IMG/VR virus record: IMGVR_UViG_3300045988_000087
Span: 1 to 5,747 of that record
Reading direction: 5' to 3' (one strand)
DNA length: 5,747 bases
DNA from: a virus
Shown: positions 1-5,747 of the stretch, piece after piece
Position numbering within the stretch: the first letter of the stretch is position 1
Layout of the letters: each line of letters opens with the position of its first letter
Notes under the pieces: generated by a model
What the model saw: the letters and a program-made list of their open reading frames with translations, nothing else
Databases searched by the model: none
What the model was told of the DNA's origin: nothing
Made by a program: the position numbers and the translations under genes

Positions 1-97
1 GTTTTTTTGGTTTGAATGGCGCTTTAGCGCCTTGCCGTGTGGAGCGCAAGCGGAACTCGGCTAATCCATTCATTGTAAGCGCTGTGCGCGTTTTCAA
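1..97. repeat. Terminal direct repeat, left copy (assembly or linearisation overlap of a circular molecule)
   Basis: Bases 1..97 match 5651..5747 exactly when compared base by base. Confidence 0.97.
18..31. other. Mini-hairpin GGCGC-TTTA-GCGCC
   Basis: 5-bp GC stem with a TTTA loop. The core CGCTTTAGCG recurs at 225..234. Confidence 0.6.
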
Positions 98-203
98 CAC
101 TTTCAACACTTTCAACAGGTTTTCAACAAAATGTTGCACAATGATTTTAGTCATTTTGACGAACTTTCAACAATTCAACAAGTTTTCAACAAATCTTTCA
201 ACA
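92..203 (+). repeat. Iteron-like array: 8 same-orientation copies of TTCAACA, 7 of them extended to TTTCAACA
   Basis: Heptamer starts are at 93, 102, 111, 122, 166, 174, 185 and 197. The first three copies are a 9-bp tandem (TTTCAACAC/TTTCAACAC/TTTCAACAG). A degenerate copy TTCAACT lies at 251..257 and an inverted partial copy TGTTGCA at 132..138. Confidence 0.9.
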
Positions 204-223
204 GTGCTTTTTGCTTTTTATTT

Positions 224-235: not shown

Positions 236-340
236 TATATTTTAGTACTTTTCAACTTTTCCACTGTCTCTACTACTACTCCTACAACAAGTTAATATTT
301 TACAACGCTTGTGAGCTTGCGAACAACAGCGTTGAAGAAG

Positions 341-383
341 CGCGCGTGCGCGCGTGCGCGCTTCGCGCGCGTGCGCACGCGCG
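341..383. other. GC-rich alternating purine/pyrimidine imperfect palindrome (very stable hairpin or cruciform; Z-DNA-prone)
   Basis: 341..351 CGCGCGTGCGC pairs perfectly with 373..383 GCGCACGCGCG. The stem continues through 352..359/365..372 with 6 Watson-Crick pairs and 2 G-T pairs, leaving the loop GCTTC (360..364). Bases 366..383 also form a perfect 18-nt palindrome. The two blocks, of 20 and 19 nt, are strictly alternating Py/Pu. Confidence 0.85.
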
Positions 384-443
384 ATAGAATATATCTACTT
401 GATAGACTGAATAGGCTGATATATGGAGCCTTTAAATGACAAT

Positions 444-475
444 AGCCCAGTACCTTACTTGATAGGTACTGGGCT
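444..475 (-). terminator. 12-bp perfect hairpin just downstream of the VP4 stop; candidate end-of-operon terminator and/or origin structure
   Basis: AGCCCAGTACCT (444..455) pairs with AGGTACTGGGCT (464..475) around an 8-nt loop. It begins 11 nt after the VP4 stop codon in the minus sense. The trailing sequence ATTGTCATTTAAAGG is only a weak U-tract, so terminator function is uncertain. Confidence 0.45.
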
Positions 476-486
476 AGGTGACACCG

Positions 487-2410: not shown

Positions 2411-4099
2411 TTACAGTTTGTACAAGCCCGGTACGCTGTATAACGGCATCCGTCTCGTGGTTTTGTTTGCTACACGGATTGCTCCGAAAAATTGCGGTTC
2501 ATTTTCTACGATGAGTGTGCGTGCAATTTCTGCTTTTCCTTCTGCCATCCATCCCTGTGATAGTGTCGGCACGGTTGAATATTTGTCAGCATAGTGCCAA
2601 AAATCCAGCGTTCCTGTTGCGTTGCTTCTCATTTTGCCGGATACTCTGTTTGGCTTCATTCTGTAGTCTGCCCATGCTTCTTGATATCCAAACGTCTCTT
2701 CGTCTTTTTCCGTGCCGGTGAGCATGATTTCTTTCTTTTTTACAGGTTGTTCACCTAAGTTTGCGAGCTGAGGTACATAATAGTCAAGTCTGTCGAGCCG
2801 GCTCCAGAAACGTTCCAGGCCTTGCTGATAGCTGTGATTGTGTCGTACACAACATACTCCGATTACAAAGCCGTGCTCCTCGAAAGATTTTGTAAAACTG
2901 TTTTCATTGATTGGTGTCACTGATACTGCACCGGTTTCACCAATAGGTGTGTTAGTGTTGTCCTGCTGTCCGCTTGTCTGCACAATCTGATTGATATTGA
3001 CGTGATATCTGCCGCCGCCAAGGTATTCCGGGATTTGTACAGTTTTATCAGAGATTACCACATCCCATAGTGCCTGTACCTGTTCGCGGTAACGGCTGCC
3101 GCCTCTTGCCAGTGCCTCGTAGTATTGCTGTACTGCCACGGCTTTTCGCAATTCGTTAATTGTCGTTGCGGTTACTCTGCTAAGGTCTGCACCTAAGAAG
3201 GCCGTATCGTTTACTTGACTTGTCGAATCTGAACTGCCTGTTACTAGCGCATATCCTTTGTGGTCTGCGTTTCGACTGTTGCCGATATTTGGCGCAAGTG
3301 CGTTTCCGCTTAGCGTCTGGTTCAAGTAGATTTCCATGTGTCCACCTACCGTTCCAAACTCTGTTAGCTGTGTGTTTTTATACATTCCAACCGGTGCGTT
3401 ACCATCTAACGGCAATGTAACTTCCGGCCCGCGCTGAGGGTACGGCAGACAGCTTGAGAAGTAGTCATGGAACTTGTTTACCGGTAAGCATCTGCCACCG
3501 TTTATTGCTTTCATTAAGATTTTGTCTGTTTCGATTTCGCCTTCGCCGCCGTCTTGATAAACTACGTTTGCATCATCGGTTTTGATGGTTGCTGCATTAT
3601 CTACATTTTCATCTCTGAAAAATTCATTCCAGATTTTTACATATGCTCGGATTGGCAGTGCGTTTGCTTTAAAAACGTTTTCAATTTTCGTTGGGATTCC
3701 CATGTAATCCAGTATTGATCCTTCATACGGCTGCGGATTATCTTTTTTGCCGTTAATGACGATGTTGGGCACTTTATATTCTTTTTTCGGCATCCATGGC
3801 GTTGCCTCTACTTCTCCCATAAACTGCCTGAAATTATCCCATATGATTCGATTTGGACAATAGAAGTAATAGAAGTCAATGAATGCATCATCCATCACCG
3901 GATACTTCGGCGTGGTCATTCTGATGATTGCTGACGTGTTCACGTTAAACGTGTCGCCCGGCAATACTTCGTCCACGTAAAATGGAATCAGTTTGCCGGA
4001 ATCAAACGTTGTTAGAATAGTCTGGTCGCGGTTGAATCGTGTTCGACTTGCTTTCATTTCTGGAATTTGGTTGAAGTGCCGTTCGTTGTTTCGGCTCAT
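2411..4099 (-). CDS. Major capsid protein VP1 (phiX174 F-like jelly-roll capsid)
   Basis: 562-aa ORF. The N-terminus FNQIPEMKASRTRFNRDQTILTTFDSGKLIPFYVDEVLPGDTF...FIDFYYFYCPNRIIWDNF is the canonical Microviridae capsid signature. The Shine-Dalgarno site is GAGGAGGAAGAAAAATG. The start overlaps the VP3 stop as ATGA. Confidence 0.96.
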   Translation of the reverse strand: MSRNNERHFNQIPEMKASRTRFNRDQTILTTFDSGKLIPFYVDEVLPGDTFNVNTSAIIRMTTPKYPVMDDAFIDFYYFYCPNRIIWDNFRQFMGEVEATPWMPKKEYKVPNIVINGKKDNPQPYEGSILDYMGIPTKIENVFKANALPIRAYVKIWNEFFRDENVDNAATIKTDDANVVYQDGGEGEIETDKILMKAINGGRCLPVNKFHDYFSSCLPYPQRGPEVTLPLDGNAPVGMYKNTQLTEFGTVGGHMEIYLNQTLSGNALAPNIGNSRNADHKGYALVTGSSDSTSQVNDTAFLGADLSRVTATTINELRKAVAVQQYYEALARGGSRYREQVQALWDVVISDKTVQIPEYLGGGRYHVNINQIVQTSGQQDNTNTPIGETGAVSVTPINENSFTKSFEEHGFVIGVCCVRHNHSYQQGLERFWSRLDRLDYYVPQLANLGEQPVKKKEIMLTGTEKDEETFGYQEAWADYRMKPNRVSGKMRSNATGTLDFWHYADKYSTVPTLSQGWMAEGKAEIARTLIVENEPQFFGAIRVANKTTRRMPLYSVPGLYKL

Positions 4100-5204: not shown

Positions 5205-5594
5205 TTATACCCCCTTTCTGTATTTTTGGGTGCGTGTGTCGATGTGTACCCATGTGTTATATACGATTATGCCGCATTCATACGGAATTATTTTATTCAG
5301 TTTGTCGGCAATTTCTTTTGCGGTCATGCCATTGATCCGTATGTCTGCCGCCATTCCTCGCATGTGGTATGAGTATTTAGCACCGCCCACTTCTTTATTC
5401 CTTGTCGGTGTCCGGTATCCACTGTTGATGATTACAGGCTTTCCGACCTGGTTTCTGAGGATGTCTAGGATTGACACTAAGTAACTGTCTATAAAAACCA
5501 CCTGTGACCCATCTTTGCAAGCAAATTCTTTTACTTTGAAGTGTTGCCCTACTTTTTCGTTTGCGTCTGTGTCCATGATATAGCTTTTTATCAT
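5205..5594 (-). CDS. Zinc D,D- or L,D-peptidase of the M15 family (Peptidase_M15_3-like peptidoglycan hydrolase); putative endolysin
   Basis: 129 aa from MIKSYIMDTD. It carries the signature FKVKEFACKDG...INSGYRTPTRNKEVGGAKYSYHMRGMAADI...WVHIDTR, giving the H-x6-D and C-terminal H-x-D zinc ligands of M15A/VanY-type peptidases. I chose the start at 5594 because GAGGGGG lies 4 nt upstream and a consensus promoter lies about 25-55 nt upstream. The upstream open frame runs through that promoter. Confidence 0.85.
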   Translation of the reverse strand: MIKSYIMDTDANEKVGQHFKVKEFACKDGSQVVFIDSYLVSILDILRNQVGKPVIINSGYRTPTRNKEVGGAKYSYHMRGMAADIRINGMTAKEIADKLNKIIPYECGIIVYNTWVHIDTRTQKYRKGV

Positions 5595-5650: not shown

Positions 5651-5747
5651 GTTTTTTTGGTTTGAATGGCGCTTTAGCGCCTTGCCGTGTGGAGCGCAAG
5701 CGGAACTCGGCTAATCCATTCATTGTAAGCGCTGTGCGCGTTTTCAA
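5651..5747. repeat. Terminal direct repeat, right copy
   Basis: Identical to 1..97. Confidence 0.97.

Follow-up and report, generated by a model that had tools for sequence, protein, structure and literature searches.

A GC-rich hairpin 5′ of the origin-like hairpin in gokushovirus genomes, a candidate single-strand signal

The window analyzed here, the whole 5,747-nt stretch of the IMG/VR record IMGVR_UViG_3300045988_000087, is a complete circular gokushovirus genome of 5650 nt with a terminal overlap of 97 nt (positions 1–97 repeat positions 5651–5747); in IMG/VR it is classed as a virus whose record has direct terminal repeats. The coding strand is the window − strand for all genes. Behind VP4, the replication initiator gene that ends the operon, lies a hairpin of alternating CG and TG dinucleotides, referred to below as the GC hairpin. 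It is conserved among relatives, shows compensatory changes in its stem, keeps its pairing on one strand, the + strand, and has a fixed order and orientation relative to an origin-like hairpin. The sequence and the analogy with plasmid single-strand origins (sso) suggest, with about even chances in our estimate, that the GC hairpin is an sso-like signal of the displaced or packaged strand; we infer that it primes the second strand rather than serving another single-strand step.

Fold, conservation and one-strand pairing of the GC hairpin

The tract at positions 341–383, to which an earlier note on this DNA had drawn attention, is confirmed letter for letter. On the + strand it forms 20 consecutive pairs (18 Watson–Crick and two G–T) with a 3-nt loop. 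The earlier note had described a hairpin of about 19 bp, with 17 Watson–Crick and two G–T pairs around a 5-nt loop; this is the same fold, and leaving the closing G–C pair unopened gives 20 bp. The alternative folds mentioned there also exist, as an inverted repeat of 337–350 with 351–364 and, by direct reading, as a perfect 18-nt palindrome at 366–383. The tract is indeed a sharp GC island (GC content 0.74 at 326–375, against 0.28–0.38 in the flanks and 0.44 genome-wide), its purine/pyrimidine alternation of 0.92 is the highest among the 40-mers of the genome, and it lies 244 nt from the terminal overlap of the contig. The two G–T pairs of the + strand, 352·372 and 355·369, become C·A mismatches on the gene-sense strand.

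Folding energies, a check that the earlier note had proposed, were calculated by ViennaRNA with DNA parameters and compared with 200 dinucleotide-preserving shuffles, which is a harsh control for an alternating GC tract. The + strand fold of 341–383 has a free energy of −31.1 kcal/mol (z = −3.6; 0/200 shuffles as good), and the − strand (gene-sense) fold, with its two C·A mismatches, has −26.4 kcal/mol (z = −1.9; 11/200 shuffles as good). When the genome is scanned in 55-nt windows, these values stand against a mean of −3.7 (standard deviation 3.1), and the second-best structure is the origin-like hairpin at 443–476, at about −15. The claim that the tract is the most stable local structure of the genome is thus true for both strands.

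Ten GenBank relatives and 80 IMG/VR contigs found via VP4 were compared; of the 91 sequences in all, seven are cut by a contig end, and 84 are informative. The full GC hairpin is seen at the same place in 80/84, as 53 unique sequences. When the 40-mers of the ten GenBank genomes are ranked by GC content and by alternation, a hairpin of the same type, about 100 nt past the VP4 stop, comes first in every genome. The carriers come from many samples and laboratories (China, France, Spain, and several IMG metagenomes) and show 73–97% genome or protein identity. An assembly artefact, which the earlier note had named, along with absence from relatives, as fatal to its proposal, was ruled out by the recurrence of the same element in independent GenBank and IMG/VR records.

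Covariation was analyzed in an alignment (A1) of 43 unique 20-bp cores, with 20 pairs plus the loop, 860 cells, and 500 column shuffles. Standard pairs on the + strand make up 99.3% of the 860 cells, and 0/500 shuffles reach the observed values. Both sides are changed in 9/20 pairs (44 cells), e.g., from GC to AT at pair 10/35 and from UA to CG at pair 7/38; the structure is kept at the same position while the sequence varies, as the earlier note had suggested looking for. Register 0 outscores all slid registers, with the ±2 registers of the dinucleotide repeat still pairing at 88–94%.

The strands differ in how well they pair. On the gene-sense strand only 82.8% of the A1 cells are standard pairs, and the non-Watson–Crick pairs of the + strand comprise 148 G–T versus 6 A–C (182 versus 15 with looser stem limits). 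A perfect palindrome is not seen in any variant, since each has 1–5 G–T positions at which the other strand is unpaired. The pairs with G–T as the majority state are the two of the window, pair 12/33 (26/43 variants) and pair 15/30 (33/43 variants). The + strand is more stable in 60/61 variants (mean −26.9 versus −21.6 kcal/mol with DNA parameters, a difference of 5.3). The hairpin loops of the + strand are pyrimidine-rich: CTT in 11, TTT in 10, CTAT in 7, CTA in 5, and others. Primase trinucleotides in the loop were considered as well and dropped, CTA or TTA being present in only about 20/48 loops, which is too inconsistent.

Two other hairpins served as controls. In the VP1–VP2 terminator, 123/123 pairs are Watson–Crick and none is G–T, which shows only that wobble is not automatic, an opposite bias not being demonstrable in a stem without wobble; in the origin-like hairpin, 18 G–T and 16 A–C are seen in 1524 pairs (135 unique variants). 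Because neither control has such a bias, the 17% of G–T pairs are special to the GC hairpin and are no by-product of the T-rich composition of the + strand (T 0.37, A 0.19). The G–T excess indicates tolerance of, or even a preference for, changes that preserve folding of the + strand, with no protection of the fold on the other strand; a role on the gene-sense strand is weakened by this asymmetry. The VP1–VP2 intergenic hairpin (2381–2400, − strand) itself is a textbook intrinsic terminator, with an 8-bp stem and a T-run, and its 16 variants include compensated transversions, e.g., CCCGG/CCGGG versus GGCCGG/CCGGCC.

The same data bear on the notion that the element has no function and is a selfish or slippage-born (CG)n palindrome, or an artefact of assembly. 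A dinucleotide repeat permits slippage, as the pairing of the ±2 registers illustrates, and the hairpin is missing from three relatives and truncated in one; however, slippage does not account for its place in 80/84 informative relatives from many samples and laboratories, for the compensatory changes and the fixed register, or for G–T pairs at fixed positions. This explanation, extremely improbable in our estimate, is largely refuted by the conservation.

The alternation itself is strictly kept. All stem changes are transitions, the two 20-nt arms alternate strictly in 43/43 variants, and none of the pairs has been exchanged by a transversion, a class that accounts for about 27% of VP4 substitutions. 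Alternating runs of about 12 bp or more, mostly CG with some TG/CA, are typical of Z-DNA-forming tracts, so that the arms are predicted to form Z-DNA, and the earlier note had called it prone to Z-DNA or a cruciform; supercoiling in the replicative form could drive either structure, which would absorb or signal torsional stress near the origin. AT-rich flanks, which favour cruciform extrusion, are present too. Alternation is explained here, but the symmetry of the two arms, the compensatory changes, and the strand asymmetry are not: Z-DNA needs no symmetrical arms, no non-alternating loop, and no compensatory changes, whereas a cruciform needs both strands folded, and with 17% of the pairs mismatched on one strand none of the variants has the perfect palindrome expected of it. 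Change by transitions alone is equally expected from selection for pairing via neutral G–T intermediates. We consider a Z-DNA or cruciform role improbable.

An element of the gene-sense messenger RNA (mRNA), i.e., a terminator, a read-through barrier, or a protector of the 3′ end behind VP4, is quite improbable. Such a role would suit the place of the hairpin, which follows the VP4 stop by about 100 nt and lies between the end of the operon and the promoter region; as RNA, the gene-sense fold also remains very stable (mean −32.9 kcal/mol). The GC hairpin also resembles a Rho-independent terminator in being a GC-rich stem-loop behind the last gene of an operon; it differs in that it has no T-run, a stem more than twice the usual length, and wobble pairs on the antisense strand (148 versus 6, the wrong strand for an mRNA). 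A terminator scan of both strands does not call it: its tails, CTTCTTCAAC on the − strand and ATAGAATATA on the + strand, have no T-run, and neither have the tails in relatives. The terminator style of these genomes is an 8-bp purely Watson–Crick stem followed by a T-run, as in the real terminator between VP1 and VP2, and the origin-like hairpin already resembles an operon terminator on the gene-sense strand. A similar element of a distant clade, described below, stands upstream of a promoter in gene-sense orientation. The "bidirectional transcription barrier" of the earlier note therefore finds no support. An Rfam scan of bases 1–700 (E ≤ 1) gives chance-level matches only, far under the gathering scores.

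Order and orientation relative to the origin-like hairpin

The origin core of phiX174 is ACTTG/ATA, which protein A cuts between G and A. The loop of the origin-like hairpin, TACTTGAT, overlaps TACTTGATA, in which this core is contained, and by analogy the hairpin at 443–476 is probably the nick site, with a putative cut between G461 and A462. In the window, TACTTGATA occurs on the + strand only, even when one mismatch is allowed, and the hairpin is separated from the VP4 stop codon by 10 nt. It is conserved across gokushoviruses, far beyond the clade of the window, as 135 unique variants with covarying stems, an invariant loop, and a fixed flank.

The GC hairpin sits 60 nt 5′ of the origin-like hairpin in the window. 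In the window and the relatives, the order on the motif strand is always GC hairpin, then origin-like hairpin, with a gap of 9 to about 160 nt. The DnaA-box-like array of the same non-coding stretch behaves differently: 65 relatives have it in forward orientation, and 6 (about 6/74), which belong to three hairpin lineages, have it inverted; in these 6 the GC hairpin retains both its place and its G–T strand. Inversions of the array in three lineages indicate that the non-coding region is built from flippable modules, and the fixed order and orientation with the origin-like hairpin indicate that the GC hairpin belongs to the origin cassette, not to the genes or the DnaA array. The inverted arrays, which include the CTA/TAG repeats and the AT-rich end, are those of L003, L031, L041, L059, and L061 (and L052).

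A comparable arrangement is seen in a small distant gokushovirus clade (L102, L107, and L216–L221; genomes of 4.6–4.8 kb, Rep of 294 aa) that has the origin motif on the gene-sense strand. Here, too, the origin hairpin is immediately preceded, on its 5′ side and on the gene-sense strand, by alternating CG/TG palindromes. These are multi-arm CG/TG/CA palindromes about 60 nt 5′ of the origin hairpin, followed by poly-A/T and a near-consensus Rep promoter. Many unrelated gokushoviruses have some GC-rich hairpin 11–37 nt 5′ of the origin hairpin.

The nearest rival of the single-strand signal is a helper of rolling-circle termination, in which the GC stem would slow the fork before the origin is regenerated, or, folded in the displaced strand, keep the origin hairpin in its proper shape, and so aid the terminating cut and ligation by VP4. 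The fixed order of the two hairpins on one strand, with the GC hairpin always 5′, the GC-rich hairpins at similar places in unrelated gokushoviruses, and one-strand pairing, which suits a role on the displaced strand, all agree with such a helper. A precise structural partnership is hard to reconcile with a spacing that varies and with modules inserted between the hairpins; a barrier to the fork alone would act on the duplex and need no one-strand pairing; and three relatives manage without the hairpin. Taken together, we regard the helper as unlikely.

Alternatively, the hairpin could take part in a bubble opened by host DnaA on the replicative form: boxes and TAG trios on the − strand would melt the AT-rich stretch, and the + strand would then fold, fixing the open complex or loading the helicase. 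In most relatives the + strand order is boxes, CTA repeats, AT-rich stretch, hairpin, with 19–90 nt (median 38) from the repeats to the hairpin, and the candidate trios lie opposite to the folding strand, both as expected. However, in the 6 relatives with an inverted array the trios are about 185–220 nt off, while the strand and place of the hairpin are unchanged; L052 has the array without the hairpin; and the AT-rich stretch is often set apart from the hairpin by inserts of 40–60 nt. A DnaA bubble is thus very improbable.

The features of the window are given in Table 1. The GC hairpin is contained in a non-coding stretch of about 545 nt that spans the junction and is bounded by the start of the peptidase gene and the stop of VP4. 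The small insert in the spacer between the CTA repeats and the GC hairpin is missing in about half of the relatives, and there the AT-rich stretch abuts the GC hairpin. Other modules also vary. An extra GC-rich hairpin module (e.g., GGCAGCCCCCTTGCTAGGGGGCGCTGACGG or CAGCCCCAAGATTGGGGC) lies between the GC and origin hairpins in L026, L027, L042, L046, L075, and others, and L007, L008, and L010 have a different insert of about 60 nt on the other side of the GC hairpin (…CCCCTTGAAG…GGGGAAGGGG…). Between both hairpins of the window, positions 399–421 of the + strand read TTGATAGACTGAATAGGCTGATA, i.e., two tandem ATAG(A/G)CTGA units beside the second TACTTGATA copy; the units are kept in many relatives as ATAGACTGAATAGACTGATA and could be candidate binding repeats for the initiator. 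Another repeat of this genome is TACTTGATAG, and TAGCGT is found at 230–235, inside a different small stem. Four-fold sites of the window genes have A 0.51 and T 0.12. Among GenBank records, those closest to the window are gokushoviruses of the human and pig gut, with 73–85% identity.

Table 1. Features of the window, with positions and strand
Feature	Positions	Strand	Remarks
TTTCAACA / TTTTCCACA-like repeat array, DnaA-box-like	92–205	+	sequence repeats, kept in relatives
CTCTACTACTACTCC, (CTA)3 on + = (TAG)3 on −, candidate DnaA-trios	268–282	+	conserved in relatives
Spacer from CTA repeats to GC hairpin	283–340	+	AT-rich CTACAACAAGTTAATATTTTACAAC, then small insert with its own inverted repeat
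Alternating CG/TG hairpin (GC hairpin)	341–383	+	5′ arm 341–360, loop CTT 361–363, 3′ arm 364–383
Second TACTTGATA copy, between GC hairpin and origin-like hairpin	396–404	+	in many relatives, not all
Origin-like hairpin, perfect 13-bp stem, 8-nt loop TACTTGAT	443–476	+	inverted repeat; conserved in gokushoviruses
TACTTGATA, with phiX174 nick core ACTTG/ATA	456–464	+	
GGTGACACC, 3′ flank of origin-like hairpin	477–485	+	conserved in distant gokushoviruses
VP4 / replication initiator, last gene of the operon	487–1506	−	Pfam PF23343 REP_ORF2-G2P, E = 7.8e-17
VP1 capsid gene	2411–4099	−	Pfam Phage_F, E = 7.5e-134
Peptidase M15 gene	5205–5594	−	
Small open reading frames, VP5, VP3 scaffold, VP2		−	further genes of the window

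The strand that may become single

Provided that VP4 cuts the motif in the manner of protein A, displacement and packaging would concern the + strand, and virions of this clade would hold the gene-antisense strand. The motif and the phiX174 analogy thus make the + strand a candidate for the displaced and packaged one. That the clade of the window, which is abundant in the gut, and at least four distant contigs package the gene-antisense ("negative-sense") strand, with the cassette flipped and the GC hairpin as second-strand origin, is a possibility to which we give slightly less than even chances.

The strand of the motif was determined by an IMG/VR scan for TACTTGAT-N11-14-GGTGACACC, with the gene strand assigned by tblastn of VP1 and VP4. 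Among the 82 gokushovirus genomes, the motif is gene-sense in 66 and antisense in 16, the latter being the window, 11 members of its clade, and 4 distant contigs. The equivalent hairpin is also on the gene-sense strand in Chlamydia phage Chp2 (L093, ~2900–2960), in Spiroplasma phage SpV4 (L094, ~505–560), and in two distant metagenomic genomes. The four distant antisense contigs indicate that the strand flip may have occurred more than once; in these contigs (L138, L146, L154, and L155) VP1 is 35–39% identical to that of the window.

Substitution spectra differ between the two kinds of clade. As estimated by parsimony from partly saturated data and with one sense clade only, the per-base C>T/G>A ratio on the gene-sense strand is 2.6–2.8 in the sense-motif clade (50 Rep genes, L296–L349) and 0.47–0.67 in the clade of the window (56–86 VP4 genes, L001–L090), i.e., a 1.5–2.1-fold excess of G>A; the spectrum of all 86 VP4 genes is too saturated alone, and the analysis was repeated with a closer subset and the sense-clade control. 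In both clades C>T is in excess on the motif strand, as expected from cytosine deamination on a strand that spends time single. Base composition agrees in part: T exceeds A on the motif strand in 16/16 antisense-motif genomes and in 38/66 sense-motif genomes. Whole-genome base skew was rejected as a decisive marker of polarity, since only those 38/66 sense genomes fit and phiMH2K is A-rich on the gene strand.

The earlier note had taken the virion strand to be gene-sense, an assumption to be revised: with 99.3% standard pairs on one strand and 82.8% on the other, the hairpin is tuned to the antisense strand. Either this strand is packaged, or the hairpin does not act in the virion strand as pictured there.

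Comparison with known single-strand signals, and implications

We propose that the GC hairpin is a cis-acting DNA element working on the single-stranded window + strand. Lying 5′ of the nick motif, it belongs to the part of the old strand that rolling-circle replication would strip off last, which is where rolling-circle plasmids usually have their sso. Once the + strand becomes single, by displacement in the cell or on entry from the virion, the GC stem of 20 bp would close and withstand single-strand-binding protein; the folded stem would display its short pyrimidine loop and AT-rich flank, and may thereby mark the start of the second strand for host primase, RNA polymerase, or a primosome. 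The complementary-strand origin suggested in the earlier note is retained here as far as the conserved structure, the compensatory changes, the sso-like place, and the one-strand pairing are concerned; the strand, being gene-antisense, is not the one that it had in mind.

An sso works in one orientation and only as single-stranded DNA; it is useful but can be dispensed with, and in most cases it is found just upstream of the nick site, where it is exposed last (PMC4595007). The GC hairpin shares with the known types (ssoA, ssoU, ssoT, ssoW, and sso1 of ICEBs1) strand-specific pairing, a place 5′ of the nick motif, and occasional loss. Its pairing distinguishes the strands clearly, with the identity of the displaced strand deduced from the motif, and it is always 5′ of the TACTTGAT hairpin, the presumed nick site. 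Conserved parts of known sso include RS_B and CS-6, and a functioning sso favours synthesis of the second strand and reduces the amount of single strand. Homology to a named sso is not apparent, as judged without direct sequence comparison: the element is a single hairpin with no conserved multi-stem fold around it, and its flanks vary.

Among phages, the n′/PriA primosome hairpin of phiX174 and the primase origin of G4 are likewise non-coding hairpins of microviruses, and the role proposed here, a priming mark, is theirs. Sites of this type are recognised by host primase or PriA on SSB-coated single strand, and the primer starts next to the hairpin. The two known sites are found on the coding-sense virion strand, where they separate capsid and spike genes, and their sequences bear no relation to that of the GC hairpin. 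The intergenic region of the filamentous Ff phages comprises a packaging hairpin, minus-origin hairpins, and the plus-origin; it is thus similar in that several hairpins are grouped on the packaged strand and the single-strand signals stand 5′ of the plus-strand nick. The Ff minus origin, however, mimics an RNA polymerase promoter and has two imperfect hairpins, while the GC hairpin has no promoter-like shape, and the families are unrelated. Hairpins priming the complementary strand have been proposed, and are unproven, in other uncultured microvirus clades (PMC9865509).

Several points weigh against the single-strand signal and the antisense packaging linked to it. Some concern the structure: the gene-sense strand still folds, at about −22 kcal/mol as DNA and −33 as RNA; an sso has 150–300 nt, several stem-loops, and promoter-like parts, whereas the GC hairpin is one plain stem-loop of 43 nt; and, compared with the phiX174 and G4 sites, it is simpler, lies beside the nick motif, and is on the gene-antisense strand. 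In the L102/L107 clade, 10 G–T versus 8 A–C are counted (five genomes, complex multi-arm palindromes). Others concern distribution: L024, L052, and L085, 3/84 relatives with apparently complete genomes, are without the GC hairpin, and L019 (1/84) has a truncated copy that has lost about 13 nt of the 3′ arm. The hairpin is therefore not indispensable, or is replaceable by something else; the three absences and the truncation could be natural deletions or assembly collapse. At the site of the hairpin, L024 has unrelated sequence and L085 a 5-bp mini-hairpin, and in L052 the inverted DnaA-box-like array directly abuts the origin hairpin. As to the strand, the limits of the substitution spectra given above apply, and A exceeds T on the motif strand in 28/66 sense-motif genomes, i.e., the support from composition is not general. 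To our knowledge, no nick site of a gokushovirus has been mapped, and every characterised member of the Microviridae is considered to carry the coding-sense strand in its virions. A full-text literature search for the GC hairpin, a mapped gokushovirus origin, or antisense packaging returned no paper.

Gokushoviruses rank with the most common phages with single-stranded DNA in the gut of humans and animals. Together with the nick-motif hairpin, the GC hairpin forms a candidate origin cassette of 43 + 34 nt, which could be cloned into plasmid testers and bears on how gokushoviruses convert the single strand to a duplex and start and end replication. One-strand pairing, the flipped nick motif, and the mirrored C>T bias jointly predict that virions of this clade hold the non-coding strand. 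If true, antisense packaging would overturn the textbook statement that Microviridae are positive-sense, and would affect strand-aware virome libraries, probes, and annotation pipelines. If it is false, the strand asymmetry of the GC hairpin needs another explanation, which would be interesting in itself.

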